IMG/VR virus record: IMGVR_UViG_3300027994_000006
Location: 16,898 to 80,897 of that record
Source of the DNA: a virus
Taxonomy: Duplodnaviria; Caudoviricetes
Reading direction: 5' to 3' (one strand)
Length of the DNA stretch: 64,000 nt
Numbering within the stretch: position 1 is the stretch's first letter; each line of letters starts with the position of its first letter. A program made the position numbers and the translations under genes. Under the pieces are notes generated by a model. The model was not told the DNA's origin. It was given only the letters and a program-made list of their open reading frames with translations, and ran no database searches. This document shows positions 10,525 through 48,494 of the stretch, piece after piece.

Positions 10525-13500
10525 TTAATTATTTGGTTGTTGTATTTTGTAATTCTGCATCAGCGACATCCAGACATTGTCTGAAAGTACCTTATTCATC
10601 ATCAATGATTGCATTGCTTTCGGATCTTTTATGAATTCCTTTCCGTACATCCTTATGATAGCTTCAGCTTGAGCATTAGCACTTTGATGTGTTTCATATT
10701 TTATATAAAAAATCTTCGGATCACTTTTACCATTAGTCTGAATATCTACATATTTATCAATAACTTTTTTTGCAAGCTCAGCTTTTTTAATTGGTGATAT
10801 GTTTTTATTATTAATCAGTTTACCTATTTCTAATCCAACAGAAGTTTGTTGAGATAAAATAGGATCTTTGAATTTTAAAATAATTTTATCAGCTTCAAAA
10901 TCAATTAATTCCTCTTGGGAAGCTATTTTATTAACTGCTTTTCGGTCATCATTAGTTAGCTGACTACTTAATCTTCCAAAGTCAGAAGTTTCTGCAGTTA
11001 ATCTTTTTTCAAAACCTCCGGAAATAGTTTGTACAAATCCCTTCTTTTCATTGAATCCAGAGTCATAACCAACCATTTTATCAATACTTCCATATGTCAT
11101 TGCTATAAATGGATTGGTATCTGGCGAAGTAATCATAGCCTCAATTGCAGCTTTGGTTCTGATTGGCGACATTCCAGTTTCTTGTCCCCAAGCTTTATAG
11201 AAATCTTCAACTTTTTTATTTTTATAACCTTCGTTTTGTAGAGTGCTTTTATTTATTGAACCATCAAGTTGTTCATCTCTAAAGAAATCATAACCACTTG
11301 CATAGGTTGCTAATGCCTTTATGATTGGATTTTTAGTCGCAATCTTTGTCGGATCTGAAATTCCAAACGGGTCAACATTCGCTGAAAATGCTTCTCGAAA
11401 TTCATCAAACGCATATCCAATGCCTTTTGTTTTTCTGCCAACCTTTGCACGGATAATATCATCAAAAATATTGCTCGCCAAAGTAAAGAATGGTGTCAAT
11501 GGTTGGGTTACTGCAATCTTGTAAGTTGTATATTCTCTATCTTCATTTTTCTTTCCATTTATAAATTGGATATAACCTCGTTTTTGGAAAGGACTCAACC
11601 CATCTTTTATATCAAGGTAAATTTCATCGGCACTTCTTTCGTCGTCATCATCTTTAAAAGCTGAAATCAAAGCCATAGAAATAGCATAACCTAAAGAAGC
11701 TGTTGCTGTTGCGCCTTGTAAGAATCTCGCCGTTGTCGCATAAGGTCTTTCCCTCACACTATCTACGGCCACACGTGTTCCCTGTGTCGCTGCATTAATA
11801 TAGGGAATAACTGATTCTAAAGCCTTCACCGATCTACCGCCTTGATTAAAATCCATTACCTTTCTTGCGCTTACAACGGCTTGCGTGTAAACATTATCTT
11901 GCGTTTCTTGATCAAGGTCTGATATGCTTTTAGCACTAAAAGCTTTCAACTGATTCTGAATGGAACGATCAAAAACTGCTACACGGAACATTGTCTCACT
12001 ATATTGTGAAAGCGATTTCAACGTAGCGATATCAAACCATTTTCCGGCAGTATTTTTTGTCTTGTTGTTAATGCCATCACCTTTATTTACAAGTCTTAAT
12101 CCCCAATCTGCCAATCTTGCTAATATTGGAGATTCACCCTGTGCATTTAGGAAATCCATTCCACCGCCATATTCAAGATACTTGGAAAGAAGATTATCTT
12201 TCTCAGTATTATTATACTTGAAAATCTCTCCAATAGCTTTTGTAGAATCTTTCGCTAACTGAATTAATGATAATGGTGCGATGTTACTATATTCCTCAGA
12301 GAACAACATTACAGAAGCGAAATCTCGTGGCGTGTTTACCAAGGCAAATCCTGGATTTCTCCCCGTTGCCATCATTTTTGTAACGGCCGAACCTGAAACT
12401 ACTGATATTGCTTCCTTCACATCACTATCAGCAAACTTTTTCATCGTATCGTGCCATTGATCATAGAAATCATCCCGCATAAAAAATTCTTTTCTAATCC
12501 CATTTTCAAAATAATAAGCTCGCTTCCAACCTTTCGATGGTAATTCTTCATTCAGAAACTTTGGTTTCCCGGAAGGTGTTAATCCTACCATAGGATTTTC
12601 CTTTACCATTGTCTGCAACTCGGCAAAATATTTTAAGAATCTCTTGTCCTCAGAAGTTAATTCACTTGCTACTTTGGATTTCAAAGTTTCATATTTTGTT
12701 TTGGCTTGTGGGAAATCTTTGTTGATGAAAGTAGAATTTACATTATTCATAAAGAATGATTTGGTTCTGCCTCCAACTGCGGTTGCCAAAAGCAATTGTG
12801 CATCATCCATCAAAATTCCCATAGATCCTTCTTCCAAAGATCGTATTTGGTCTTTCGATAAACCTGTAGAATCTCCAAATTTTTCTCCGGATAGCGGTCG
12901 TACAGAAATCAACTTTCCATCATTATCATATTCCATATCAAAAAGATGCTCCATAAACTGTCTTGGCTGATAATCGACATCGGCCATACTATCATATTGT
13001 TCTTGGTTGATGATGCCGTTCTTTTTCATATCCGACAACAATCCTTTGAACTCTGCAAAATAGTCATCTGCCTTTTTATTCAACTTATCAAATGTAGGTT
13101 TACCGATTTCCAGTTCCATTTGCTTTAAAGCATTTTGTGCTGTGTATTGGTTGGAATTATCCGGATGATTGACGGGTTCTAATCCTCTTGATTCACGATT
13201 TTGGTCAACAGAAACAATTCTTCTTTGCTGTACAATTGCATTGAAGTTATCTCTGTCTTTATTGGTCATATCCGCAAAGATTTTATCGTAGATTTTTTCC
13301 CATCTCGCCTTTGCGCTGGCAGATGCACCACCGTAAGAAATCATTCTGTTATAAGTCGCTTTTGCATTGATGTTTTTAAGGATCGTTTTTGGAAGATATT
13401 GTCTGTCCGAAACCTCTCTTATAAATCCTCGTTTGATATTTTGGATAACTTCTTTTAGTTTAGGAAATTTGTACAAAGCGTCTTTAACTTGCTGTTGTCT

Positions 13501-16500
13501 CTCTTTTACTTTTTTATAAGCGTTGTCATCTGGTTTAGTTTTACTCACTTCACGGTCATAGACTTTTCTCGCTAAATCTTTTGCACGAGGCGATTCGTAT
13601 TTTTTAGGATTGATGTCATAGATTTCCTGCAAAGTTTTTCCATCAGCAAATCCATCTTTTACTTCCTGCGTGATTTTCTCAGTATATTTCACATCATTTT
13701 CCAATTGCTTTTGATATTCGTAAGCATTGGTTTTATTGTAAAGTTCTATGAAATTATCCAAAGCTTTTTGAGTATTATTAGCATTTAGGATATTGGCCGT
13801 CGCTTTGATAAGTCGATTAGCTTCTGATGGTGTGAGGCTTCTTTTTATCTTATCCGATGTTATCAAATTCACAATATCATTATAAGCCTGCTTCTGTATA
13901 TTTCTTATTTTCGCAATTCTTTCCCGGCTTTCGGCTTTGGATCCAAATTTTATTTTTTGAATTTCTTCAACGTACTTAGCTTTTATCTCAGCAATTTTTT
14001 CTTTAGCAACTTGCTTTAAATCTTTGATAGCTTCTTTGCTGGATTCTTTTTCTTTCGCTAATTTTACCTTATCTATTTCCTTTGCCAATTCCGTTCTGGA
14101 TTGTTCGTTTTGAATAAGAGTTGCTACAATATTATTCTCGGAGAAAAGATTTTGAGTATTAATTTCCTGTTTCTTAGCTGCGGATAAATTTTTGTACCAG
14201 TTGCTTTCTTTCAGTTTATTTACGCCAGATTCTAATCCATTTGTCTGGATTTCTTCAATAACCTCATTTATAGTTTTTGCGGGAATTAGATTGTTTGAAT
14301 TTACAATATTGTAATTGATGCTAGTATTTCCGTCAGCATTCACTTCCGCAGCAATCGCCTTGCCTCCCAACAAATCACCAACTACACTCTCTGTAAATAC
14401 TTTTAAAGTAGTTTCTGGATTCGCTTTGATGTTAAAATAGTTTCCAATTCGTGAGAAAACATTCTTAATCCAGTCGGACAACTCTTTCATTTTCCCTCTT
14501 GGATTGTTGTTTCTCCATTCCCCGTAGTTTCCTATGTGGGTGTTAAGTGCTTCACTCCATATTTGTTCATATGATAGAGTAGAGTAGTTGCCGTCGGATT
14601 TCAGTTGGGTGTAGAGTTCTTTTCCTGTTTTTGTATTTTGGAATAAGGCGACACCTTTCTTCCACGCATTCGGCATTACTTGCTCCCAAAGGTGCGAGAA
14701 CTCGTGAATAGCAGTATTGGCGTTTAGCTTTTCTGGATTGATGTAGATTGTGCCATCAGGAAGTTTTGCACCGTAGATTTCTCCATTGACGGTACGCATA
14801 AATTGTACATCTTGTTCTGAAGATGCTTCATTTACCTTTTGTTGTCTGTCACCTTCAATCTTTTTATCATACTGATAAACTGCTAAACCTCTTTTATTTA
14901 GTTCACTTAAAAATTTATCGCTAATACCTTTTGGAACAACTGCCGCTTTAAACTCTCTTAATGCAACTGCTCTTTGTGGTTTTGCTTCAAAATATTCTGT
15001 TGGTGCGTTTTTGAGTTTTAAAATGTACTCTTTTATTGTATTTAATTGTTCTTCAGAAAGATTTTCGAATGTTTCATTAAGAGCATTTTTTTTGCCTCCT
15101 GCAAATTCTCCAATTGATGCTGCTGCCTCATCAAAATAACTAAAAGAATTTTTGTCGTATCTATAATTGTCTTTAATATTTACAAGTAAATCTGATAGTT
15201 CATCTTGTGTTTCGTCTTTAAGGTTTTCAATTTCTTTTTTTGAAACAATTTTATTTCTATCTTTTTTAATATCTTCCAAGTTTTTAAACTGCTTAGATGC
15301 ACTAGCTCTAATATTACCTGCTCCGTAAGTAAAATTCTCTCCGTTTTTTATTTTTCCTTTTAGAATTTTTACGACATTTTCTAGATTATGAGGAATGTAT
15401 TTTCGGTAGCCAGATGGAGTATAGCCATTAAATATTTTATCTTCAATATTATATTTAGCTGTTTTCTCTTCTACCCAATCTTGCAGTGCCTGTTCTGCTC
15501 CATCCGTATTATAAAAATATTCGCTAGCCCCATTCCCATATTTAGAATCTGGAAATTTAATATTATTATCTACCATGTAAGCTGTCATAATTTGACTGCT
15601 TCGCATTTCATTTAGTGCATCTTCTACATCTAAATAAGTGAATTTTGATTTTTCATCTTGGTTAGCTAAATCAAGTATTTCTTTTTCAAATTTTGTTTGA
15701 TCTGAAATTGATTTAAAACTTTTTTCAGAACGTGGATATCTTGGTGAATATACATCTGTATCAAAAACTTTATTAGTTGGCTGTTTAGGATCTGCTAGAT
15801 ATGTATCTCCAATTAGGGTTATTTCACCAAAAGAAGTGAGTGGATTATTTGCACTTGTAATAGCTAAACTTGGTACAGGTAGCCCTCCTATATTAAGAGC
15901 ATTTGCTAATCCTCTTTCAGATATGTTATGTATAACAATTAACGGTTTCGGATTTTGTATTTGAAACTGAGAATCAAAATTAACATTTAGTCCCAAAGCT
16001 TTCGCCTTAGTAGAAAACGCATTCCAATCCGTAGTAATATTCAGATTTTTAAATGCTTTGGCGAATGGTTTTTTAAGTTGTTCTATTAAGGCATCAAATG
16101 CCTGTTTGGTTATTTGGGCATATCGCTCGTTTGTTTGTTGCCTTTGGACTGTTCCGTTTGTGCCTGTTTTATTTCCAGCATTCGGATTGCTTTCTCTTTG
16201 TCCGTTAGATGGTTCGGTTGCAGTTTCGTCCCCATTTTCTTCATCTGATCTATTATATTCATATTCTGATATTTGTTGTTCTAAAGGTAAGGAATTAAAC
16301 GAACTGTCATATTCAATAACTAATTTATTTCTTTCTACATTATCAAGTCTTTCATATTCCGCTAAAGCTTTTTGTTTTTGAGATTCCGTAGATTCTATTG
16401 TTTTGGCGACGGATGGATTTAGTTTATCCAAAAGATATTTCGAAGGCCTTTCACCAGTCAGTTTAATAAATTTCGCTTCTGCTTTGGTGTACGTCGGATT

Positions 16501-19500
16501 ATTTGGTCGTTCAGCTTTTGTTGGGTCGCCAGGAAACTCCATTATAAAATCAACAATATCCTGCGGAGTAATCGCCTCTGATGAATAATCCTGATTGAAC
16601 ATTTCTGAAGCTTCCTGAGCAATGACATCAATACCTTTTCCTCCTTTCTGTGGTGGAAAGTAAGTTCGGGCAATTGGATCTGTAATATTATTCACATCAC
16701 CAAATCTGATAAAACTATCACGGTTTACATTCTTGCCAATGACTTGTGCAATAACCCATTTTTTTGAGCCTACAACATCACCTTTATCAAACTTCGGTGT
16801 AGTCATCAGAACCTGAGCAATCTCTTTTGGATTTTCAGATTTTTCCAAAACTTCTGCAGTATAATCTGCTTCGGTCATTCCATCTTGAATTTCTACTTTT
16901 GATTCTGGATATTCTTTTTGATTGATGACTTCGGCAACATATTCTGCTTTTGTCTTATAGCTTTTAGGATTTACTTCTTTTCCGTTTTTATCTAAGAGTT
17001 GGAAAGTTGTATTTCCTGATTGATCTTTATTTTCTTGGATGTTATATTTTCCATTTGATGATGGAATTTTTACCGCATCAGTGTTATTTGTTACCGCATC
17101 ATTTCCTTTACTTGTGTCGGTGTTAACGGCTGTAGATATTCCTTCTGTATTAGTTTTCCCTTGCTGTTGAGTTTCTGATAACCTTTCAGTCCCAAGTTGA
17201 GCGTTTCCATCATTAATAGGATTATTTCTCGTTGTTTCGGTGTTGCCATTTTGTAATAATTTTAGTTTCTCTAAATTATTTTTAGTTAATTCTTCCTCAC
17301 TAATTTCAGTTTCCGGAGTAGGGTTTGGCGCATCATTTACTGCATCATTTACGGTATTTGTAGGATTTAAGATTCGATTAAAATAATTATCTGTGAAATT
17401 TTTACCGTCTGCCTTTTGATCGGGTGCAGGCGATAATTTAATGCCTTGTTTTGTTAAGTGATCGTACATTGCAGAAGCAAGTCCTTTTCTTCTGTACTCC
17501 GGCTGAACGCTGGTAGATTCCGAAGAAATAGTACCGTCTTTTTTCTGAGTGAAATTAGACATCCCAATTACCTTATCCCCATCCTGAACAGTAACCATTA
17601 TACCGTTGGCTGGGTCTTTTCCATACTGATTAATAGTATAGTTTTTACCTTCTTTATCTGTGTAGGTTGAGTTTTCTAAATTTTGGGAATTCGGTTGCGT
17701 TTCTGCAACATTAGTTTCGGCTTGAACTGCTTCTGATTCCTGTGGGGATTGTGGATTTTCTTCATTTGTAGATGTGGTTTCGGTTGTAATTAAATCTTCT
17801 CCGATTTTTGCGTTAAGATCATATTTTTTATTCTTTGTATTTTCTAAACCTGATTTTAAAATATCATCGACGCTTTTGTTCACTTCATCAAGTTGAGCTT
17901 GTATGACACCGTTTACGGCAGAATCACCATTTTCTTTTATTTTTTCTTTTAGTGCTTCTGCCTGCTGTAATTTTATTACAACATCTGCCGTCTGCGAAAC
18001 GCTTAAAGAAACACCATCTGGAATTTGACTGGTGTATTTTTCAACTTCTTTAATTTGATTAAGCATTGTTCCGGCCTTTTCAAATGTGTAACCTATCAAT
18101 GATTGGTCTGATAAGTCATAAAGCATTTTTTTAGCTTCCGGAATCTGCGAGGCAACGATTGCTTTTTCCAGATTATTCATTCCGGATGTTCTTATTTTCC
18201 CTCTGCCTAGAGCGTTGAAGGCATTAAGTATAAATGTATAGCCACTCGTCTGCTCTCCGATTGCGAAATAATCATCAATAGAACTCGCTGTAAATTTATC
18301 CTTACCATCATTATCTTTTTCGTTGATAGAATTGAATCCTTCATTTACAACATCCTGTACTACTTGTTCAGAGAATTCCTGTGTATTTTCGCCAATAGCA
18401 GTTTTTGCATATTTTTTTAGAAAGTCAGTAACGATCAATCTTCCTTCCTCTATTTTATTCTGAGAAAGAAGTTTAAAAAGACTCTTATTTGTTGAGCTGT
18501 ATTCTTTAAAGAAAATATTATCGGGACTTACTCTTGTCATTAAACCAGTAGCAGCACTTTGGAAAACAGTATATGCAAATGCTTGTGTAGGCGACAAACC
18601 AGCTTCTTGCGCTGTCTGCATATTTTGTCTTGCAGTAATGTAAGACCACGCTAAGGCAGATGATTTATTGTAAGATTGCGCCGCTTCAGCACCATTATAC
18701 AATGCTTTGGTAAGAATATTTTCTTTACCTAATGTTTGCGCCGATTTATTACCCCATCCCAAAAGTTTTGATGAAGTGCCTGCTTTTACAACATTTGCTA
18801 TTCCGTCTGCCGCCATCATAGTAGCAGTCATATTAACTATGGTTCCGGAAATGGAAGCAATATTTCTATCCTGATAAGTTTCTGTTTTTTTTAATCCGGA
18901 TATTCCATCATAAGTTAGTTTCTCATTGAGTTTTAAATCTCCACTTTTATCCTTATCATAAACAAAACCAAATCTCTCTTCGTATTCTTTTCCTGTTTTC
19001 TCATCTTTGTAAACATTCACCGTGTCGCTCCATCCTGACTGCAAGACATTGAAAGGATTTTGTACTTCAGCGTTTATAGTTTCGTTGAGTTGTGTTGTTG
19101 TTTTTGATATAGGCGATGCCAAGGCAAAAGGTGCAAGTACAACATCGGCCGCTACTTTAAAAATTCCTGTACCAATAGCTTTTGAAGTATAAGAAATCGT
19201 ATCTGTGAATTCAGAATTTTCGTAACCTGCATATTCTCTTGCGGCATCCATCTTTTTTTTCTCAGTAACATCAAAATCTTGGTTAATAGAAATCTCATCT
19301 TGATTTACTTTTTTAAAAAGCGCAATCTCTTCATTTATTTTTGCAATGGAAGTATTATTTCTAAGTTCACGCAATCTTTGTAATTCTGCTACATCTTTCT
19401 TTTTTACAGCATCATTGATAAGAATTTTATTACTCTCATCCCTATTTTTTAAAACAACACTATAATCTGAAAGATTCTGTTTTTTCCAATTAAAAAAGTC

Positions 19501-20781
19501 ATCCAAAATTCTTCTTCTGCCATTTGCTTTTCCGGATTCCAATTCAAAGTTATAATCACCTACTTCACCAAATTTATTATAGCCTCGATCATTAAGATAA
19601 TCAGAAAAATCTTGCGAGTAATTTGTTAAAACTTTATTCCATCCTTGAACTTCAGATTGTGTTAATGCTGCATCTTCTTTCGCTTTTCCTTCAAACTGAT
19701 CATTTACAAATTTCCCACGTTGTAGGATGCTGTTAATATATTGTTTAGCCGTATTGGATTTTGATTGATTATCATCAGCAATAGTCTGGTTTGCTAAGGC
19801 GACGGCTTGATCTTCGGGATTGCCTTGCTTGATGTAATCTTGTAATAAATTTTGATACTTGGCTTCCTGGAACTCATCACGGGTCAATACACCGTTTTGT
19901 TGGATGTATTCTTCGCCGAGGACAGATTCTTGCTGTTCCTTCAATCTATTTTCTGCTTCCGCACCTTGTAAGATGGGAGCTATAGACTTGTTGGTTGCAT
20001 CACGTTGATCATAAGCATCTGGTTTTTTATAACCTAATAATTCCTGAATAGGATTTTGACCTACTTCATTAACTTGAAATTGAGGTCTTCCATTCTTTTC
20101 ATCAGGGAGTATTTTTCCCCAACCATTAGATTGCCAATTTTGATATTGAGATAATTCCTGTTCTTTTGTAATTAAACCGCCAATAGAATTTTCGCCTTCA
20201 AATGCGCCGGAAGTAATTACTTCTAATTTTATATCTTTTAGCTTTTTATAATCTATGGTATCAAGAACTTCATTAGGCTGTAATTGCAGAAAATCATCAT
20301 TTGTGGTTTGTGGTTTTTCCTCTTCATCTACACCTAATAATTTCTTTGGACTAATAGTTTGAGTGGTTTTGGGTACAATGGCATTAACCTGATTTGTATT
20401 AGATAAATCAGGTTGAATATTGGTAATAGGTAATTGTGTATTAGAACTTTCTAAACCAGAAGATACCGTTTCTGTCGAAGGCGATTCCAACAAAGTATTG
20501 CTTGCCGTAGAATCCAATCCCAAAGAATTGTCTGCTTGTGCTTGAAGTATCGATTTTTCCTGCGCTTGATTCAAATCCAACTCGTTGCTTATCGGAAGCG
20601 AGGTCATCATCGACGAAGGTGTAGTATTCTCCACTATGAGGTTCTCGGGTAAGGTCTTTTTTTTTTCAGAATCAGTCTCAGTAGGGAGCATTGATTCAAA
20701 TTCTTTAAATGATTTGTAATCCTCAAAAGAAGCTTCTCCGCCGTCGCTTAAGTATTTCTGATATTCTAATTCTTCGTTCAT
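10525..20781 (-). CDS. Giant polyvalent virion/ejection protein (GNAT, ART-like, HExxH zincin, LPD38-like domains)
   Basis: 3418 aa; VQPEYRRKGLASAMY (GNAT motif A); IHNISERGLANALNIGGLPVPSLA...YFEAKPQRAV; NANTAIHEFSHLW; C-terminal PYINAATQG...YKIAVTQPL; last gene of the ejection-protein operon. Confidence 0.85.
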   Translation of the reverse strand: MNEELEYQKYLSDGGEASFEDYKSFKEFESMLPTETDSEKKKTLPENLIVENTTPSSMMTSLPISNELDLNQAQEKSILQAQADNSLGLDSTASNTLLESPSTETVSSGLESSNTQLPITNIQPDLSNTNQVNAIVPKTTQTISPKKLLGVDEEEKPQTTNDDFLQLQPNEVLDTIDYKKLKDIKLEVITSGAFEGENSIGGLITKEQELSQYQNWQSNGWGKILPDEKNGRPQFQVNEVGQNPIQELLGYKKPDAYDQRDATNKSIAPILQGAEAENRLKEQQESVLGEEYIQQNGVLTRDEFQEAKYQNLLQDYIKQGNPEDQAVALANQTIADDNQSKSNTAKQYINSILQRGKFVNDQFEGKAKEDAALTQSEVQGWNKVLTNYSQDFSDYLNDRGYNKFGEVGDYNFELESGKANGRRRILDDFFNWKKQNLSDYSVVLKNRDESNKILINDAVKKKDVAELQRLRELRNNTSIAKINEEIALFKKVNQDEISINQDFDVTEKKKMDAAREYAGYENSEFTDTISYTSKAIGTGIFKVAADVVLAPFALASPISKTTTQLNETINAEVQNPFNVLQSGWSDTVNVYKDEKTGKEYEERFGFVYDKDKSGDLKLNEKLTYDGISGLKKTETYQDRNIASISGTIVNMTATMMAADGIANVVKAGTSSKLLGWGNKSAQTLGKENILTKALYNGAEAAQSYNKSSALAWSYITARQNMQTAQEAGLSPTQAFAYTVFQSAATGLMTRVSPDNIFFKEYSSTNKSLFKLLSQNKIEEGRLIVTDFLKKYAKTAIGENTQEFSEQVVQDVVNEGFNSINEKDNDGKDKFTASSIDDYFAIGEQTSGYTFILNAFNALGRGKIRTSGMNNLEKAIVASQIPEAKKMLYDLSDQSLIGYTFEKAGTMLNQIKEVEKYTSQIPDGVSLSVSQTADVVIKLQQAEALKEKIKENGDSAVNGVIQAQLDEVNKSVDDILKSGLENTKNKKYDLNAKIGEDLITTETTSTNEENPQSPQESEAVQAETNVAETQPNSQNLENSTYTDKEGKNYTINQYGKDPANGIMVTVQDGDKVIGMSNFTQKKDGTISSESTSVQPEYRRKGLASAMYDHLTKQGIKLSPAPDQKADGKNFTDNYFNRILNPTNTVNDAVNDAPNPTPETEISEEELTKNNLEKLKLLQNGNTETTRNNPINDGNAQLGTERLSETQQQGKTNTEGISTAVNTDTSKGNDAVTNNTDAVKIPSSNGKYNIQENKDQSGNTTFQLLDKNGKEVNPKSYKTKAEYVAEVINQKEYPESKVEIQDGMTEADYTAEVLEKSENPKEIAQVLMTTPKFDKGDVVGSKKWVIAQVIGKNVNRDSFIRFGDVNNITDPIARTYFPPQKGGKGIDVIAQEASEMFNQDYSSEAITPQDIVDFIMEFPGDPTKAERPNNPTYTKAEAKFIKLTGERPSKYLLDKLNPSVAKTIESTESQKQKALAEYERLDNVERNKLVIEYDSSFNSLPLEQQISEYEYNRSDEENGDETATEPSNGQRESNPNAGNKTGTNGTVQRQQTNERYAQITKQAFDALIEQLKKPFAKAFKNLNITTDWNAFSTKAKALGLNVNFDSQFQIQNPKPLIVIHNISERGLANALNIGGLPVPSLAITSANNPLTSFGEITLIGDTYLADPKQPTNKVFDTDVYSPRYPRSEKSFKSISDQTKFEKEILDLANQDEKSKFTYLDVEDALNEMRSSQIMTAYMVDNNIKFPDSKYGNGASEYFYNTDGAEQALQDWVEEKTAKYNIEDKIFNGYTPSGYRKYIPHNLENVVKILKGKIKNGENFTYGAGNIRASASKQFKNLEDIKKDRNKIVSKKEIENLKDETQDELSDLLVNIKDNYRYDKNSFSYFDEAAASIGEFAGGKKNALNETFENLSEEQLNTIKEYILKLKNAPTEYFEAKPQRAVALREFKAAVVPKGISDKFLSELNKRGLAVYQYDKKIEGDRQQKVNEASSEQDVQFMRTVNGEIYGAKLPDGTIYINPEKLNANTAIHEFSHLWEQVMPNAWKKGVALFQNTKTGKELYTQLKSDGNYSTLSYEQIWSEALNTHIGNYGEWRNNNPRGKMKELSDWIKNVFSRIGNYFNIKANPETTLKVFTESVVGDLLGGKAIAAEVNADGNTSINYNIVNSNNLIPAKTINEVIEEIQTNGLESGVNKLKESNWYKNLSAAKKQEINTQNLFSENNIVATLIQNEQSRTELAKEIDKVKLAKEKESSKEAIKDLKQVAKEKIAEIKAKYVEEIQKIKFGSKAESRERIAKIRNIQKQAYNDIVNLITSDKIKRSLTPSEANRLIKATANILNANNTQKALDNFIELYNKTNAYEYQKQLENDVKYTEKITQEVKDGFADGKTLQEIYDINPKKYESPRAKDLARKVYDREVSKTKPDDNAYKKVKERQQQVKDALYKFPKLKEVIQNIKRGFIREVSDRQYLPKTILKNINAKATYNRMISYGGASASAKARWEKIYDKIFADMTNKDRDNFNAIVQQRRIVSVDQNRESRGLEPVNHPDNSNQYTAQNALKQMELEIGKPTFDKLNKKADDYFAEFKGLLSDMKKNGIINQEQYDSMADVDYQPRQFMEHLFDMEYDNDGKLISVRPLSGEKFGDSTGLSKDQIRSLEEGSMGILMDDAQLLLATAVGGRTKSFFMNNVNSTFINKDFPQAKTKYETLKSKVASELTSEDKRFLKYFAELQTMVKENPMVGLTPSGKPKFLNEELPSKGWKRAYYFENGIRKEFFMRDDFYDQWHDTMKKFADSDVKEAISVVSGSAVTKMMATGRNPGFALVNTPRDFASVMLFSEEYSNIAPLSLIQLAKDSTKAIGEIFKYNNTEKDNLLSKYLEYGGGMDFLNAQGESPILARLADWGLRLVNKGDGINNKTKNTAGKWFDIATLKSLSQYSETMFRVAVFDRSIQNQLKAFSAKSISDLDQETQDNVYTQAVVSARKVMDFNQGGRSVKALESVIPYINAATQGTRVAVDSVRERPYATTARFLQGATATASLGYAISMALISAFKDDDDERSADEIYLDIKDGLSPFQKRGYIQFINGKKNEDREYTTYKIAVTQPLTPFFTLASNIFDDIIRAKVGRKTKGIGYAFDEFREAFSANVDPFGISDPTKIATKNPIIKALATYASGYDFFRDEQLDGSINKSTLQNEGYKNKKVEDFYKAWGQETGMSPIRTKAAIEAMITSPDTNPFIAMTYGSIDKMVGYDSGFNEKKGFVQTISGGFEKRLTAETSDFGRLSSQLTNDDRKAVNKIASQEELIDFEADKIILKFKDPILSQQTSVGLEIGKLINNKNISPIKKAELAKKVIDKYVDIQTNGKSDPKIFYIKYETHQSANAQAEAIIRMYGKEFIKDPKAMQSLMMNKVLSDNVWMSLMQNYKIQQPNN

Positions 20782-37751: not shown

Positions 37752-38537
37752 TCAACGGTAAGCCGCCGTGACCATAGACGGTTTATTTTCATAGATATAA
37801 TTCTTATATAAGAAACAATGATTACTTATAGCTTCGGCTTTCTTTAAACCCAAATAATGGGAAAAACTAACTGCGTAAGGATAAATTCTCGCCATTTCAT
37901 TAAAAACTTTGATAAGACCTCGTTCTTTTAGGAACTTTTTGTAGGCCGTTATCGTGTTTTTAGATTTTCTTTCTAAAAGTTCACCCATTCTTTTTATAGA
38001 AAGCAACATTTGACTATTGTAATCCATCTTACCGCCCTTCTTTAAATAAAGTTTCAGCCTTTTGAAATCTTGCAATGTGCAATCTCCTTTTGGTTGATTC
38101 TTTTGTTGATTAATGTAATTGTAGCGTTTAATGCGTTCAATAGTTTTTTCCTGTTGTACTATGTTGGAAAGAACCGGGATCGTGTTTAAAAAATATTTTA
38201 TGTCAGAATACTCTGATATGTTTCTGGGAACGAAAACAAAATTGGACTCGTCAGGGCGCATTTTAGCGTTTGTGATAAGTCGCATTTCATTAGCATAGAA
38301 TTCTATTAGTTTATTTTCTTTAAGGATTCTAACGTGTTTTTGTAAGGCTGTGAGGCTGATATTATATTTATCAGCAATCGCCTTTATCATCTTGGTCTTT
38401 TCTCCTGAACGGAAATAATAATTTTTGCCCGTATGAGATTTAAAAAGGAAAACAAACATAGCAAGAGAGGGAAGCCACTTTTCTCTGTGTGCCTTTGCAT
38501 ATACCTTCCCGTTAATCCTTACTATGATATTTTCCAA
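37752..38537 (-). CDS. Winged-HTH protein; replication initiator candidate
   Basis: IADKYNISLTALQKHVRILKENKLIEF plus a second HTH (ELLERKSKNTITAYKKFLKERGLI); first gene of the DNA-metabolism operon. Confidence 0.5.
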   Translation of the reverse strand: MENIIVRINGKVYAKAHREKWLPSLAMFVFLFKSHTGKNYYFRSGEKTKMIKAIADKYNISLTALQKHVRILKENKLIEFYANEMRLITNAKMRPDESNFVFVPRNISEYSDIKYFLNTIPVLSNIVQQEKTIERIKRYNYINQQKNQPKGDCTLQDFKRLKLYLKKGGKMDYNSQMLLSIKRMGELLERKSKNTITAYKKFLKERGLIKVFNEMARIYPYAVSFSHYLGLKKAEAISNHCFLYKNYIYENKPSMVTAAYR

Positions 38538-39861: not shown

Positions 39862-41613
39862 ATGTTCCGTACACACACAAACGGCGAACTAACGCTGAAA
39901 AATCTGAATGAAAAAGTAACACTTTCCGGCTGGGTACAAACCATCCGTGACAAAGGTTTTATGATTTGGATAGATTTGCGAGACCGTTACGGCATCACCC
40001 AATTAGTTTTAGACGAAGACAGAACTTCCAAAGAACTTTTGGAAACTGCTAAGAAATTAGGTCGTGAGTTTGTCATCAAAGTTGAAGGAACTGTAATCGA
40101 ACGTACTTCCAAAAACCCAAAGATTGCAACCGGAGACGTAGAAATCTTAGTTGAAACGCTAATTATTTTAAATGAATCTCAACTTCCACCATTCACCATC
40201 GAAGACGAAACCGACGGTGGCGAAGAATTGAGAATGAAATACAGATACCTCGACATCAGAAGAAATCCGGTAAAAGACAAATTGATTTTCCGTCACAAAA
40301 TGGCGCAAAAGGTACGAAACTATCTTTCCGAAGAAGGTTTCATCGAGGTTGAAACGCCGGTTCTAATCAAATCTACTCCGGAAGGTGCGAGAGATTTCGT
40401 AGTTCCAAGCAGAATGAATCCGGGACAATTTTACGCACTTCCGCAATCTCCTCAAACTTTCAAACAATTGTTAATGGTTGGCGGAATGGACAGATATTTT
40501 CAAATCGTGAAATGTTTCCGTGATGAGGATTTAAGAGCCGACAGACAACCGGAATTCACGCAAATCGATTGCGAAATGGCGTTCGTAGAGCAGGAAGATA
40601 TTATGAATGTTTTCGAAGGAATGACAAAAGTTCTTTTGAAAGACATCACAGGAAACGAATTCCAGGATTTCCAAAGAATGACTTTCGCCGATGCGATGCA
40701 AAAATACGGAAACGACAAGCCGGATATCCGTTTCGGAATGGAATTCCACGAGTTAAATGATTTAACGAAAGGAAAAGATTTAAAAATATTCGACGAGGCT
40801 GAATTGGTTGTCGGAATCAATGTTGAAGGGATCGCAGATTACACCAGAAAACAAATCGACGAATTGGTGGATTGGGTAAAACGCCCACAAATAGGCGCAA
40901 CTGGATTGGTTTGGATTAAATTCCAAAATGATGGCGTTGTAACTTCGTCTGTCAATAAATTTTATTCTGAAGAAGATTTGAAAAAAATCACTGAAGAATT
41001 CGGAGCAAAAGCTGGAGATTTAATTTTCGTAATGTCCGGAAACGCAGATAAAGTGAGAACCCAACTTTCCGCTTTGAGAATGGAACTCGGAAACCGTCTT
41101 GGATTGAGAAAAGGAAACGAATTTGCACCACTTTGGGTTGTAGATTTCCCGTTGCTGGAATTTGATGAAGAATCCGGAAGATACCACGCAATGCACCACC
41201 CTTTCACGTCTCCGAAAACCGAAGATTTCCATTTATTAGAAACGGACCCAGGTAAAGCAAGAGCCAACGCATACGATCTGGTTTTGAACGGAAACGAAAT
41301 TGGTGGCGGTTCTATCAGAATTTTTGACAGAGATCTGCAGTCGAAAATGTTTGACCTTTTAGGATTCTCCAAAGAAGATGCAGAAGCACAGTTCGGATTC
41401 TTGATGAATGCCTTCAAATATGGTGCTCCACCTCACGGAGGATTGGCTTTCGGATTTGACAGATTGGTCGCCATCCTTGATGGAAATGAAGTGATTAGAG
41501 ATTACATCGCTTTCCCGAAAAACAATTCCGGACGAGATGTGATGATTGATGCGCCTGCACCGATTCATCAGGAACAGTTGACGGAACTGGAACTTAAATT
41601 GGATTTAAAATAA
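39862..41613 (+). CDS. aspS: Aspartate--tRNA ligase (bacterial class IIb, full length, probably discriminating)
   Basis: [10 protein letters not shown] start, OB-fold [10 protein letters not shown], motif 1 [17 protein letters not shown], motif 2 [21 protein letters not shown] insert, HHPFT, motif 3 [10 protein letters not shown]; 583 aa. Confidence 0.98.
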
Positions 41614-44581: not shown

Positions 44582-45676
44582 TTAGTTAAAGGCAGAATTT
44601 CTCCTGTTTTCCAGATCCTTTTTATACGCTTCTGCTGCGCCTGTGGAAGTAGCTTGAACGGTTTGCACAACATCAGGACTTACGTTTCTTCGTAGCTTGT
44701 CTCTTTTCGCTCTGTCATTCAGGACAGCCTGCTCAATGAGGAAGTTGGTCATAGCCTGCGACGTTGGCGCATAGGCTTTTGTGACCGTTTCGATAAAACC
44801 CTTAGCATTTGTAAGCTGGTTTTTTTCGTTGAAGAAACTGTTGATGAGTACGCCCACATCCTCGCTGACGGTTCTTGCGTGCTTTAAATATTCCTCATCA
44901 GGAGTATATTGCACATTCACCGCATCGATACCAAGCTCTTTGTTGCCTTGATACGATAATTCTACAGTCGTTAGTTTCGGTAGTTCCTGATAGACTTGTT
45001 CTCTGTTGAAGGTGACGAGCGTCTGCTGTTGTTCTTGCGCTTGTTGAGCGATTTCCTCGTAAGTAAATCGTTTTTCAACTTGGCTTTCAACGTCAGATGT
45101 ATTGGATGTAAATTCTTGAAGGTTTCCATCGTGCCATTTGCTGGCTTTACGAAGTTCACCTGCCATCTTAGCTTTTTGTCTAAGAATCTCCTTTTCATCC
45201 AACTCGCCAGAAAAATCATCATCGTCATCGCTAACTGCGACCTCCAGTTCGCTCATTGCAAAAGCAATCTCATCTTCATTCATACCTTCTTGTTCAGAAT
45301 AGTACTTATGAAGGAGTTCTTTAGCATCGAGGTCTTTGGCAGGTGTTGTCAGGAACTCAAATTCTTTCCAATCATCTTTTCCGGTCTTCTGTACAAACTC
45401 GTTGTATTTCGCCACTTTTTCAGAAGCGAAAGAATTTGTTTTTTGTTCCGGAACTTCTGTTGGAGTTTCCGTAGCATTTTTATTTGGATTATCTGTTTCT
45501 GTTTCAGGTGTTGCAATTTCTGCAACAGTTGCCGTTGGAGTTTCAGTCGCAGTAGTTTCTGGTTGCGTTTCTGTAGTCTCCGTAATAGGCGTTTCAGTTG
45601 GTTGTTGTGTTTCTTGTGTAGGCGACGCCTGTGAGGGTGCGCCTTCATTCATAAGATTACTTAATGTGTCTCCCAT
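44582..45676 (-). CDS. Capsid scaffolding protein
   Basis: Thr/Glu/Pro low-complexity N-terminus, acidic helical body; directly upstream of the capsid gene. Confidence 0.7.
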   Translation of the reverse strand: MGDTLSNLMNEGAPSQASPTQETQQPTETPITETTETQPETTATETPTATVAEIATPETETDNPNKNATETPTEVPEQKTNSFASEKVAKYNEFVQKTGKDDWKEFEFLTTPAKDLDAKELLHKYYSEQEGMNEDEIAFAMSELEVAVSDDDDDFSGELDEKEILRQKAKMAGELRKASKWHDGNLQEFTSNTSDVESQVEKRFTYEEIAQQAQEQQQTLVTFNREQVYQELPKLTTVELSYQGNKELGIDAVNVQYTPDEEYLKHARTVSEDVGVLINSFFNEKNQLTNAKGFIETVTKAYAPTSQAMTNFLIEQAVLNDRAKRDKLRRNVSPDVVQTVQATSTGAAEAYKKDLENRRNSAFN

Positions 45677-45697
45677 AATTTTCCTGTGGTTTTAAAA

Positions 45698-45737
45698 CAA
45701 AATTATAGGTACACCCACACCATAGCGGTTTTGCTTA
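45698..45737 (-). promoter_or_regulatory. Late-class promoter TAAGCAAAA-N23-TAATTTTG (head operon)
   Basis: Same geometry as sister sites. Confidence 0.75.
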
Positions 45738-45763
45738 TTTTGTTGATAACTATTTAAAATAAA

Positions 45764-45797
45764 ATGAATGGATTGTAAACAAATATGATTATCTTTG
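45764..45797 (+). promoter_or_regulatory. Operator-promoter, 34-bp class (ATGAATGGATTGTAAACAAATATGATTATCTTTG)
   Basis: Back-to-back with the head late promoter; drives the HNH/ncRNA operon. Confidence 0.75.
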
Positions 45798-45820
45798 AAG
45801 TATAACAAAATCACTAAATA

Positions 45821-46192
45821 GTGGTAAGTAAGAAAAGATGTTCTAACGGATGTAACTATCCAAGATTTTCGAAAGCTCTATGCAAAATATGCTGGCAAAA
45901 AGAATATGGAAAACCCATTAAAAAGATTTCTGCCAACTATCAGAAGATTCTATCGGAGTATTCGCCTATACGGAAGGAGTATTTAGAAGCTCATGCAGAA
46001 TGTGAGTTAAAGCTGGAATGCTGTACGAGAGTAGCAACTTGCATACATCACAAGAAGTCAAAACACAGCAAAGAATTATATCTCAATTCAGAGTTCTATA
46101 TGTCGAGTTGTGTTCCTTGTAACGGAAGAGTAGAAGAACTTGGAGAAGAGGCGTACCGATTAGGTTTGAAAGTTAGACATAATACAAAATAA
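45821..46192 (+). CDS. HNH endonuclease with Zn-binding motifs
   Basis: CSNGC...CKICW; CELKLECC...TCIHHKK...SSCVPCNGRVE. Confidence 0.75.
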   Translation: MVSKKRCSNGCNYPRFSKALCKICWQKEYGKPIKKISANYQKILSEYSPIRKEYLEAHAECELKLECCTRVATCIHHKKSKHSKELYLNSEFYMSSCVPCNGRVEELGEEAYRLGLKVRHNTK

Positions 46193-46305
46193 GAGAAGTG
46201 GCGAAATATGAGACGCAGGCCTATATGGCAAAAACAAAGGATGAAGTATAAACATCCCATCTATCCGGATAGATGAATTGCAGGTATCGAATCCTGTCTT
46301 CTCTT
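46192..46305 (+). ncRNA. tRNA-like RNA 1 (Leu-type D arm, non-canonical anticodon region)
   Basis: Acceptor AGAGAAG/CTTCTCT; D arm GCG-AAATATGAGA-CGC; T arm GCAGG-TATCGAAT-CCTGT; central 62 nt with hairpins GGATG/CATCC and CATCTAT/ATAGATG. Confidence 0.7.
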
Positions 46306-46317
46306 TTTAAAATATTT

Positions 46318-46439
46318 GGGAAAGTAGCTCAGAAATAGGTTAGAGCGATTGAACTTAATTGGTTTGGAAAACCAGCATTTAAAAAAGCTATTAAATGTGT
46401 CTCCAGTAGGTCAGCGGTTCTATTCCGTTCTTTTCCACA
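46318..46439 (+). ncRNA. tRNA-like RNA 2 with about 50-nt expanded anticodon loop
   Basis: Acceptor GGGAAAG/CTTTTCC+ACA; TAGCTCAG...GGTTAGAGC D arm; AGGTC variable loop; T arm AGCGG-TTCTATT-CCGTT; two hairpins in place of the anticodon loop. Confidence 0.75.
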
Positions 46440-46442
46440 TTT

Positions 46443-46553
46443 AACAAACCATCACTCACGAGTGAGTTGCGTAAACATAATTACAAAGGTGTAGATAACA
46501 GCACTACAAGGGTGTTTCAAATGTCATCCTAAATTGCCTGCTGATGGTTTGTT
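46443..46553 (+). ncRNA. Multi-branch structured RNA closed by a 12-bp stem
   Basis: AACAAACCATCA/TGATGGTTTGTT perfect stem; internal hairpins, one with a TTCAAAT T-loop-like sequence. Confidence 0.5.
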
Positions 46554-46585
46554 TTATTAATAAATAATTTAAAATAATATATATA

Positions 46586-46798
46586 ATGGATTACTTAAAA
46601 AAAGCAAGAGAAGTTTTCATCGAGTTGTTCTTTGAACCTTGGATGACAGCTAAAGACTTTCAACAATTTGAAACCAAAGCAATCGCACATTGCAACTATG
46701 GCACAAAAAACTTTGCTCGTGACCTGGAAAACCAGTACAAACCGATGAGTGAAATTGACAGTCGCCTTGATGAAGTAAAACAAAAAGTAAGACTATAA
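46586..46798 (+). CDS. Hypothetical protein
   Basis: 70 aa, TAATG coupling to the next gene. Confidence 0.65.
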   Translation: MDYLKKAREVFIELFFEPWMTAKDFQQFETKAIAHCNYGTKNFARDLENQYKPMSEIDSRLDEVKQKVRL

Positions 46799-47094
46799 TG
46801 CAGATAGCAAAGGATATTTGGAACGGCTTATTTAATTACATTTCATACAGATTAGGATTAACCTTTCCTGAATGGAACACGGTTTACGACCAGAGATTAC
46901 GAGCCTGTGAAAAATGTCCTTTAAAAAAAGGAGCGTACTGCTCAAAAAATCGTTCGGTACAAATTATTGACAACCAAAAATTATTAATCAAAAATCCAAC
47001 AGGCGTTGTTACCGGTTGCGGATGCATAATCAAACTGAAAGCCGGAACCACATCGCCTTGCCCGCTTAACAAATGGCAAAACTTTAATTTCTAA
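46798..47094 (+). CDS. Cys-rich phage protein
   Basis: RLRACEKCP...C...GCGC..KLK...CPLNKW recurrent phage Zn-binding pattern. Confidence 0.7.
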   Translation: MQIAKDIWNGLFNYISYRLGLTFPEWNTVYDQRLRACEKCPLKKGAYCSKNRSVQIIDNQKLLIKNPTGVVTGCGCIIKLKAGTTSPCPLNKWQNFNF

Positions 47095-47095
47095 A

Positions 47096-47434
47096 ATGGA
47101 AGAAACACTTTATAAAAAAGGACACGAGACACTATCAACTTTTAGCAAGATTGAAAAGTGGGGAGAAGAAAGGAATTTCTACGGAGAAGGAGGCGCAACA
47201 ATCGAAGGCCAGTTTGTAAAATTAAACGAAGAAATCGGCGAGTTGGCTGGGAATATTGCTAGAGGTAGAGATTACACAGATGATATCGGAGATATAGTTG
47301 TCGTCCTTGTTCACCTTGCGAGATTAAAAGGAACAAATATCCAAGCCTGCATCGAACATTCTTACAACGAGATCAAAGACAGAAAAGGAAAATTCGAAAA
47401 TGGATTTTTCATTAAAGAATCAGATTTAAAATAA
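47096..47434 (+). CDS. MazG-like nucleotide pyrophosphohydrolase
   Basis: QFVKLNEEIGEL...DDIGD...YNEIKDRKGK. Confidence 0.85.
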   Translation: MEETLYKKGHETLSTFSKIEKWGEERNFYGEGGATIEGQFVKLNEEIGELAGNIARGRDYTDDIGDIVVVLVHLARLKGTNIQACIEHSYNEIKDRKGKFENGFFIKESDLK

Positions 47435-47441
47435 CGGTTGG

Positions 47442-47696
47442 ATGAGTGATGATATTTACGAAAACGCAAAGAGAAATGGAGATAATCCAATTTATCAAGT
47501 TTCTCAAGGTCTTACTAAAAAAGAATATTTGTCATCTATTGCACTGCAAGGAATTCTTTCAAATCAGTCTTTAATTGATAAAATAATTAAGCCGGGTGAA
47601 GATAATTATATAAGTTTTTTAATTAATCGAGTTTCGATGATCTCAGTAGATTTTGCAGATGAATTATTATTACAATTAGACAATACAGAAGAATAA
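47442..47696 (+). CDS. Conserved phage hypothetical protein
   Basis: GLTKKEYLSSIALQGILSN...ADELL family pattern. Confidence 0.7.
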   Translation: MSDDIYENAKRNGDNPIYQVSQGLTKKEYLSSIALQGILSNQSLIDKIIKPGEDNYISFLINRVSMISVDFADELLLQLDNTEE

Positions 47697-48494
47697 ATGC
47701 CCCAAAACCATATCCAATCACTTTTCGCCTACATAAAATTTGCACCAAAAGAAATGCAAATCAAATATTGTAACGGAATACCACGACAGATAAAATACGG
47801 AACTGATGTTTTGGATAAGGCAGGGAAACTTCTTAAAACAGGTTCGGGCAAAATAAGACAAAAGGAGATCTTAAAAGAAAATCCGGAATGGAAAGCGAAC
47901 AAAACAGATGATGCTTCATTCAATGGGATTTTGTTCAGAAATTCCAGAGTGTATATTATGAACATCTACACTTTTGATCCAGACAAAGATTACCAGCCGT
48001 CCTATTTGGACATCACAGAATTTTTCAATGAAATGCTCAGCGAGTACAACATTTACCACTTGTGCATTATCATTCCGAAGGCAGTCAGAAAACTTTATGG
48101 AGACTGCACCTTGACAGAAAATTTAATACCATTCATCAAATATGACAGACCATACAGATTACCAAAACTCAGATACAAAATCACCAGTACACACGCCAAA
48201 GAAAGGAAGTTTATTGAAAGTAAAGGGACATCAATCAATGGAACTTGGAATCAAATACTTCATAGATCCCTTGGAAAGTTCGGTAATCTTAGCGCCTTTA
48301 GAGAACAGAGAAACGAAAGATGCCAATCACTGTATTTCTTATATACCCAAGAACCAGAACTACGTGTTCCTAACCACCGCCCAAAACCACCCGATGGTTT
48401 ACCACCAAAAGGAGAACGAAAGGCGAGAAGAAGGTTTGGAGCGTTTGGTACTGAAACCTGGCGAAGTGATTGGACAGATAATCCAGATAATTGA
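47697..48494 (+). CDS. Hypothetical protein; 3' third overlaps another ORF
   Basis: 265 aa; the C-terminal Pro/Arg-rich part looks off-frame. Confidence 0.5.
   Translation: MPQNHIQSLFAYIKFAPKEMQIKYCNGIPRQIKYGTDVLDKAGKLLKTGSGKIRQKEILKENPEWKANKTDDASFNGILFRNSRVYIMNIYTFDPDKDYQPSYLDITEFFNEMLSEYNIYHLCIIIPKAVRKLYGDCTLTENLIPFIKYDRPYRLPKLRYKITSTHAKERKFIESKGTSINGTWNQILHRSLGKFGNLSAFREQRNERCQSLYFLYTQEPELRVPNHRPKPPDGLPPKGERKARRRFGAFGTETWRSDWTDNPDN

Follow-up and report, generated by a model that had tools for sequence, protein, structure and literature searches.

A selected tRNA-Ala-like RNA of a temperate phage carries a folded domain in place of the anticodon arm

A tandem of small structured elements lies within a 64,000-nucleotide stretch of viral DNA (hereafter the window), which covers bases 16898-80897 of an IMG/VR viral record, an 80.9-kb contig that is about 75% complete. 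A Cys-rich ORF, whose PHROG match is to a family of unknown function only, is followed on the same strand by 2 tRNA-like elements and a further non-coding element (Table 1). Element 1 begins at the last base of the stop codon of the ORF, and element 2, the subject of this report, begins 12 nt after element 1 ends. A sigma-70 promoter scan was uninformative, Bacteroidota promoters being outside its scope.

The phage is tailed and temperate, and it infects flavobacteria. It encodes a large terminase and virion proteins, 2 tyrosine integrases (16 and 44 kb from element 2), KilA-N/ANT, YopX, and MazG. Relatives of the terminase come from Riemerella, Chryseobacterium, and Elizabethkingia assemblies, which points to a host among the Weeksellaceae. 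Read with the standard code, the genome is 90% coding, and its stop codons are TAA (56), TGA (12), and TAG (8). Among GenBank phages, no close relative was found by DNA, and single-protein back-translation of the 2 flanking ORFs gave no match. The virion-gene module also holds an AspRS gene (48-52% identity to Firmicutes-like AspRS), and a single ORF of 3,418 aa lies in the structural region (window 10525-20781, minus strand).

Table 1. Coordinates of the tRNA-like locus, the parts of element 2, and the phage AspRS gene (window numbering)
Feature	Position	Strand	Remarks
Intact bacterial-type AspRS	39862-41613	+	Catalytic core, GAD, and anticodon-binding OB domains
Cys-rich 123-aa ORF	45821-46192	+	Directly upstream of the tRNA-like pair; no Pfam match
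Element 1, companion tRNA-like	46192-46305	+	From fold; 114 nt; acceptor AGAGAAG/CTTCTCT, perfect 7 bp
Element 2, whole	46318-46437	+	Acceptor position 1 to discriminator A73; Rfam tRNA and R1 models
Acceptor 5' strand GGGAAAG	46318-46324	+	Pairs with 46430-46436, 7/7 pairs
D arm GCTC-AGAAATAGGTTA-GAGC	46327-46346	+	12-nt loop with GG; stem invariant in 3 copies
Anticodon-stem remnant, 5' strand ATTG	46348-46351	+	Pairs with CAGT 46404-46407; same 4 bp in window, L086, and L121
Junction strand J1 AACTTAA, unpaired	46352-46358	+	Invariant in 3/3 copies
Insert hairpin 1, stem TTGGT/ACCAG, loop TTGGAAA	46359-46375	+	Anticodon-loop-like (GGA)
Insert hairpin 2, stem CATTTAA/TTAAATG, loop AAAAGCTA	46376-46397	+	Pairs: 7/7 in L121, 6/7 in L086
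Junction strand J3 TGTCTC, unpaired	46398-46403	+	TGTCAC in L086, TGTTAC in L121
Anticodon-stem remnant, 3' strand CAGT	46404-46407	+	Three-copy alignment
Variable loop AGGTC	46408-46412	+	GGTC common to the whole family
T arm AGCGG-TTCTATT-CCGTT	46413-46429	+	T at position 57; relatives have canonical TTCGATT
Acceptor 3' strand CTTTTCC and A73	46430-46437	+	T at 46434 is U70; A73 at 46437
Non-coding element, 125 nt	46442-46566	+	97.6% identity to L086 despite 42% neutral divergence

Element 2 is a tRNA-like RNA gene that annotation programs read differently. An earlier note, made from the letters of this DNA, had proposed tRNA finders as a check, and their answer is divided. The Rfam tRNA model (RF00005), run with lax filters, matches element 2 from end to end (model 1-71) at 36.7 bits, above the gathering score of 29 (E 2e-5), and this is the sole match to the model on the contig. 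ARAGORN called no tRNA or tmRNA anywhere within the window; in intron mode with lowered stringency, all it produced was a drawing of a 'tRNA-Phe(aaa)' that made no sense. The element was missed as well when Rfam was run with fast filters at gathering thresholds. A custom model (R1) was used for the whole element alongside the Rfam tRNA model.

The earlier note had described an acceptor stem (GGGAAAG/CTTTTCC), a D arm, an AGGTC variable loop, and a T arm, and all of these are present at the places it gave. The dinucleotide TA separates the acceptor 5' strand from the D arm, and CA follows the discriminator at 46438-46439, so that CCA is not encoded. The anticodon stem that the note had drawn (ATTGA/CCAGT) stands in part: ATTG and CAGT pair over 4 bp, and the fifth position is an A.C mismatch. 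Its central insert of about 50 nt measures 52 nt by the tRNA covariance model, against 9 nt in the Rfam tRNA model itself, and the 2 hairpins it had seen there (TGGTTT/AAACCA and CATTTAA/TTAAATG) are in place. Set against the anticodon criterion of RF00005, the element thus has a 4-bp stem around 52 nt, not a 5-bp/7-nt arm with U33. With the tRNA arms fixed, the centre folds into the 4-bp stem, a strand of 7-8 nt, hairpin 1, hairpin 2, and a strand of 5-6 nt. The fold energy of the element corresponds to z = -1.6; since the region is AU-rich, thermodynamics alone is weak evidence for the fold.

A metagenomic relative (L086) has element 2 at the same place (Rfam tRNA, 37.8 bits), beside a 455-aa protein that is 97% identical, and is 81% identical to the window over 5 kb. 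Four-fold degenerate sites of the neighboring gene provide a neutral yardstick: 76 of 180 (42%) differ between the two. The scaffold of element 2 differs at 2 of 70 positions (3%; p 3e-14 against the neutral rate), and the insert differs at 9 of 52 (p 1e-4). Within the insert, unpaired bases are conserved (2 of 28 differ, p 5e-5), and paired bases are not below neutral (7 of 24 differ). The pairing itself persists, as 11 of the 12 hairpin pairs are intact in L086 despite 7 stem substitutions, through compensatory changes; random placement of 7 substitutions breaks as few pairs in 0.6% of simulations. Across the copies, pair 45:55 of hairpin 1 has gone from G-C to A-U, and pairs 60:79 and 63:76 of hairpin 2 have changed on both sides.

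A third copy (L121) lies in a Weeksellaceae genome, with an identical copy (L124) on the IMG/VR provirus UViG_2728368984_000001, and scores 104.9 bits with model R1. Here, acceptor pairs 4:69 and 7:66 have changed on both sides, G3.U70 is still a wobble, and hairpin 2 again shows a compensatory change that leaves its helix fully paired. When the three sequences are aligned with regard to structure, 97.9% of cells are paired and 5 pairs are changed on both sides; slid controls on the same alignment give 43-57% paired cells and zero pairs changed on both sides. The covariation counts are small because the two-hairpin form comprises 3 distinct sequences (window, L086, and L121/L124), and the support for the structure is good but not overwhelming. 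Further copies of this form may exist in the closest TerL relatives (85% identity, Logan/ENA). The note had held that a lack of compensatory changes among homologues would speak for a decaying gene; such changes were found in the insert. By these measures, the scaffold and the central module of element 2 are both under purifying selection, in line with the note's proposal that elbow and acceptor are kept and the decoding arm is rebuilt. Each close copy does have one near-universal elbow position off (T57 in the window; A18 in L086, where AG replaces the GG of the D loop), which hints that constraint on the canonical D-loop/T-loop contact may be relaxed.

Element 1 has a Leu-type 3-bp D arm, a T arm (GCAGG-TATCGAAT-CCTGT) with an 8-nt loop, and a non-canonical middle of about 62 nt. 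Set beside its L086 counterpart, element 1 has an unchanged 5' acceptor strand and 1 difference in 38 positions over the T arm, the 3' acceptor strand, and the spacer after it (p 3e-8); in the D stem, GCG/CGC has become GTG/CAC, a covarying change. The middle is hypervariable, at 42% identity with indels, and the whole element measures 93 nt in L086. Element 1 resembles an ordinary 73-nt tRNA(UAG) of another phage (L127), and an exact search of IMG/VR with its T arm and acceptor returned no match. The 125-nt element downstream folds with z = -2.6: several hairpins lie within a closing stem of 11 bp (46444-46454 with 46542-52), and a T-run comes after it. A terminator is one possible identity, some other structured RNA another. 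The counterpart of this element in L086 is set apart from the tRNA-like gene by an inserted segment of about 320 nt that contains a small ORF. The earlier note had mentioned neither of these neighbors, nor the alanine identity set and the family of relatives described below.

A search of IMG/VR with a pattern made of the T arm and 3' acceptor strand returned 16 loci; after each locus was paired with its 5' strand, there were 17 distinct sequences in all, in a family whose membership is pattern-defined. The shared body reads GGGGAAG-TA-GCTCAG..GGTTAGAGC ... GGTC-AGCGG-TTCGAGT-CCGTT-CTTCTCC-A-CA, and members score 32-50 bits as tRNA. The central domains, 14-74 nt long, are unrelated in sequence between subfamilies: L128 and L134 lack an anticodon arm altogether, and one member (L122/L135) has a loop of 6 nt. 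The family is not uniformly non-decoding, since L137 (2328-2409, plus strand) keeps a canonical anticodon arm with the loop CUUUUAA (UUU/Lys type) on an alanine-identity chassis. The D loop of L137 carries a GCGAAAGC hairpin, ARAGORN draws the gene instead as tRNA-Tyr(GUA), and it may have a dual identity. Hairpins are inserted into the D loop of several family members, some capped by GNRA tetraloops; members with such inserts match the Rfam tmRNA model at its two ends only, with 22-25 bits against a threshold of 47. RNAalifold mis-nested the scaffold of the L125/L129/L133 subfamily.

A family member usually heads a small cluster of ordinary phage tRNAs. The flanking genes differ between phage groups, and no conserved partner protein lies beside the gene. 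Insert-bearing tRNA-model matches of 139 and 134 nt (about 37 bits) adjoin a family member at L125:5919-6057 and L139:1654-1787, both on the minus strand; tandem remodelled tRNA-likes therefore recur in other phages. Separately, a DUF805b RNA motif (RF02914, 48.8 bits) sits immediately 3' of a phage tRNA-Trp(CCA) at L089:6806-6838 and at L091:3790-3822, in human-oral relatives of this phage. The literature we searched held no description of the family and no natural tRNA scaffold with alanine identity in phages. The distinctive combination is a full cloverleaf tRNA-Ala chassis, a branched replacement domain supported by covariation, and the exchange of that domain wholesale across the family.

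The acceptor of element 2 bears the tRNA-Ala identity set: G3.U70 (G at 46320) with G1-C72, G2-C71, and A73. G3.U70 and A73 are the established identity set of AlaRS, an enzyme that does not read the anticodon. Both features occur in 17 of the 17 family sequences, including copies with changed neighboring acceptor pairs, with the proviso that U70 was part of the pattern by which the 16 IMG/VR members were found, and only G3 and A73 were free to vary there. The ordinary Trp, Phe, Tyr, and Met tRNAs adjacent to family members in phages have Watson-Crick 3:70 pairs.

The scaffold is close to the body of an ordinary tRNA-Ala(UGC) from the cyanophage Synechococcus phage S-H35. With this tRNA and that of Chryseobacterium it shares a near-identical body (GGGGAA..AGCTCAG..GGTAGAGC, GGTC, AGCGG-TTCGAGT-CCG.T), G3.U70, A73, and the end CCACA without an encoded CCA; host tRNA genes likewise end in CCACA with CCA not encoded. 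Element 2 differs in lacking both the 5-bp/7-nt anticodon arm and an alanine anticodon, with the 52-nt branched module in their stead. The S-H35 genome has 3 ordinary tRNA genes (L140:283-531; KY945241.1, about 37967-38215) that score 67-71 bits and are unannotated in GenBank, the tRNA-Ala(UGC) among them.

The closest host tRNAs to the scaffold are the rRNA-operon tRNA-Ala(UGC) and the elongator tRNA-Met. The 3' half of the scaffold, with at most 1 mismatch, was found in 0 of 401 genomes sampled across the host phylum and in 3 of 401 genomes of the host family, all 3 of which carry non-canonical members; on these counts, the RNA family is specific to phages and does not represent a host gene copied as attP. 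More distant phage relatives have an ordinary tRNA(CAU) in the syntenic slot, after a similar Cys-rich ORF (small and Cys/His-rich in L094) and with a homologous 3' flank, and the site is thus an ordinary phage tRNA site that was remodelled. Two other relatives (L087 and L088, at 59% and 53%) have no tRNA region at the syntenic place.

We favor, at a probability of roughly 0.55, the reading that element 2 descends from a phage tRNA-Ala gene and is functional but does not decode: a tRNA-Ala mimic. Sequence comparison establishes its conserved tRNA-Ala body, its identity set, the folded replacement domain, phage specificity, and the modularity of the family; charging with alanine is probable. 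Element 2 would be transcribed together with the upstream 123-aa ORF and element 1, excised by RNase P and 3' trimming, and given its CCA by the host enzyme. AlaRS, reading G3.U70 and A73 and ignoring the anticodon, would charge it with alanine. The product would be incapable of codon reading and would present a tRNA-Ala look-alike to a factor that binds the acceptor/elbow half, as a tag-less tmRNA tRNA-like domain would, and the central module would supply lineage-specific binding or specificity. Of the functions that the earlier note had listed, a ligand of aaRS/EF-Tu and a substrate of RNase P appear to fit best, in view of an alanine identity set that does not vary among the copies. The idea of a decoy for anticodon nucleases seems weaker, because one copy lacks the U33 equivalent in what is the sole anticodon-like loop.

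Several other accounts deserve weighing against the tRNA-Ala mimic. In the first, element 2 is a signal for RNA processing or stability only (tRNA punctuation): cuts by RNase P/Z would set the 3' terminus of the upstream mRNA as well as the termini of neighboring transcripts, and the excised RNA would have no role. The abutment of element 1 on the upstream stop codon and the close spacing of element 2 on the same strand suit this account. So does the pattern of conservation, as the best-conserved parts of both elements are the acceptor and T arm, together the minimal substrate of RNase P/Z and the CCA enzyme, and the middle of element 1 evolves freely. It leaves unexplained why G3.U70, which RNase P/Z does not need, stays a wobble while neighboring pairs change; why the unpaired bases of the insert are conserved and both hairpins are maintained by compensation; and why the D arm and variable loop are invariant. 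In addition, family members occupy quite different operon contexts in other phages. We judge a role in processing alone to be unlikely.

Still less probable is an intron-bearing pre-tRNA, from whose anticodon loop about 43 nt would be removed, for example at 37/38, to yield a 77-nt decoding tRNA. The architecture recalls archaeal and eukaryotic BHB pre-tRNAs, where tens of extra nucleotides lie inside the anticodon loop of a normal cloverleaf: the extra length of element 2 falls within that loop, the 5' junction strand is invariant, the syntenic site holds an ordinary tRNA(CAU) in more distant relatives, and L137 has a canonical anticodon arm. The host, however, is bacterial, and protein-dependent tRNA splicing is not known from bacteria. 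As the earlier note had observed, the insert (43-52 nt) is far too short for a group I/II intron, and Rfam gave no intron or ribozyme match in 45000-48000 at E up to 10. A BHB-like pattern is not above chance, occurring also in 43% of shuffles; its register shifts between copies, and it clashes with the covarying hairpins, whose stems and loops are conserved as a folded domain. The ligase RtcB was not found on the phage contig. Removal at 37/38 would leave the loop ACUUAAU, with C33, an ochre anticodon (UUA), and an A.C pair closing the stem, in a phage of standard genetic code whose genes mostly terminate with TAA. The armless L128 and L134 also speak against a decoding end product.

In a third account, element 2 decodes through an extended anticodon arm, with hairpin 1 (loop UUGGAAA) presenting GGA to the serine UCY codons. 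A brute-force search for canonical 5-bp/7-nt stem-loops in which U33 is present and position 37 is a purine gave hairpin 1 alone, in the window copy and in L086, and the stem of this hairpin is preserved by a compensatory change. The loop in L121 is UGGGAAA, with G as the U33 equivalent, and no anticodon is conserved among the copies, as the earlier note's failure to see a clear one had suggested. The loop would also lie 4 bp and a junction farther from the elbow than any known anticodon; anticodon stems of natural tRNAs measure 5-6 bp (PMC7609411). This account is very improbable.

We give equally little credence to decay, in which element 2 would be what remains, as a pseudo-tRNA, of a phage tRNA gene that was once ordinary. 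The silence of ARAGORN, the one elbow position off in each close copy, and the relatives with an ordinary tRNA at the site are what such a remnant would show. Against these stand the divergence of scaffold and insert, both below the neutral rate, the compensatory changes in 3 helices (both insert hairpins and the acceptor stem), and the spread of the family across many unrelated phage contigs. The earlier note had preferred a mimic to random decay, and these changes, together with a 17-sequence family with interchangeable centres, agree with that preference. Least credible of all is an attP-type copy of a host tRNA gene for site-specific integration, which would suit a temperate phage with 2 tyrosine integrases and 3' halves as the most conserved parts, but sits poorly with the genome counts given above, with a full 5' half that pairs with the 3' half, and with the distance to the integrase genes.

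Narrower candidates were tried and rejected. A suppressor tRNA for a recoded phage is at odds with a genome in which the standard code gives 90% coding density and TAA is the commonest stop. A tRNA-Asp-like ligand of the phage AspRS does not agree with the change of GTC to GTT in J3 of L121, nor with a discriminator that is A, not G. A mini-tmRNA with a tag frame fails, because no frame can be conserved between copies that differ by a 1-nt indel.

Among known systems, the tRNA-like domain of tmRNA offers the closest logic for a tRNA-Ala mimic. Mycobacteriophage DS6A encodes a 'TLD only' tmRNA, and a molecule similar to it strongly inhibits tmRNA, perhaps by titrating SmpB (Hudson et al., PMC4131195). 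Like that RNA, element 2 is a phage-encoded, alanine-type (G3.U70) acceptor/T-arm module with no anticodon, and DS6A may by analogy be its nearest functional precedent. Unlike tmRNA, element 2 has a full D stem and a tRNA-type variable loop, and it has neither a tag reading frame nor pseudoknots. The Rfam tmRNA model (RF00023) had no match in the window, and SmpB was not found on the phage contig. A second comparison is YrlA (RF02553), a Y-RNA-like tRNA mimic of bacteria and phages (Chen et al. 2014, PMC4201824), which is likewise non-coding, with tRNA-like D and T arms, tertiary pairs, and service as a substrate of tRNA enzymes. YrlA differs in being permuted, with an acceptor-like stem that is a closed loop and a Ro60-binding helix, made by the two ends of the RNA, at the place of the anticodon arm, whereas the ends of element 2 are of the tRNA type and lie at the acceptor stem. 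RF02553 gave no match at element 2 at E up to 10, and a Ro60/TROVE gene was not found on the contig.

The architecture of the phage family, one chassis with many cargos, also matches a laboratory design. In the engineered 'tRNA scaffold' for RNA expression, reportedly due to Ponchon and Dardel, a structured RNA replaces the anticodon arm and the tRNA body gives processing and stability. The phage family is a natural template for such tRNA-scaffolded RNA expression. The 'species 1/2' stable RNAs of T4 are a possible analogue.

Phage tRNA genes are usually taken to aid codon usage or to replace tRNAs that host defences have cut. In the lineage studied here, strong selection has preserved a tRNA-Ala body that would no longer decode, and related phages reuse the body with entirely different centres. 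The genes are unannotated in phage genomes because ARAGORN and default-filter Rfam miss them. As AlaRS ignores the anticodon, tRNA-Ala is the one chassis that can be charged without an anticodon arm. The same anticodon independence is exploited by tmRNA, and the family may therefore show how tmRNA-like molecules arise. More tentatively, and we regard this wider proposal as possible but doubtful, Bacteroidota phages would keep a natural tRNA scaffold: an alanine-chargeable chassis with interchangeable RNA cargos for the anticodon arm or D loop, swapped as cassettes between lineages and employed, whether as decoys or as adaptors, against those host defences that are directed at tRNA or linked to translation. 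If true, this would be an independent, modern replay of tmRNA's route from tRNA-Ala. The finding points to an unrecognised class of phage RNAs whose targets would be the translation or ribosome rescue of the host, or defence proteins that bind tRNA.
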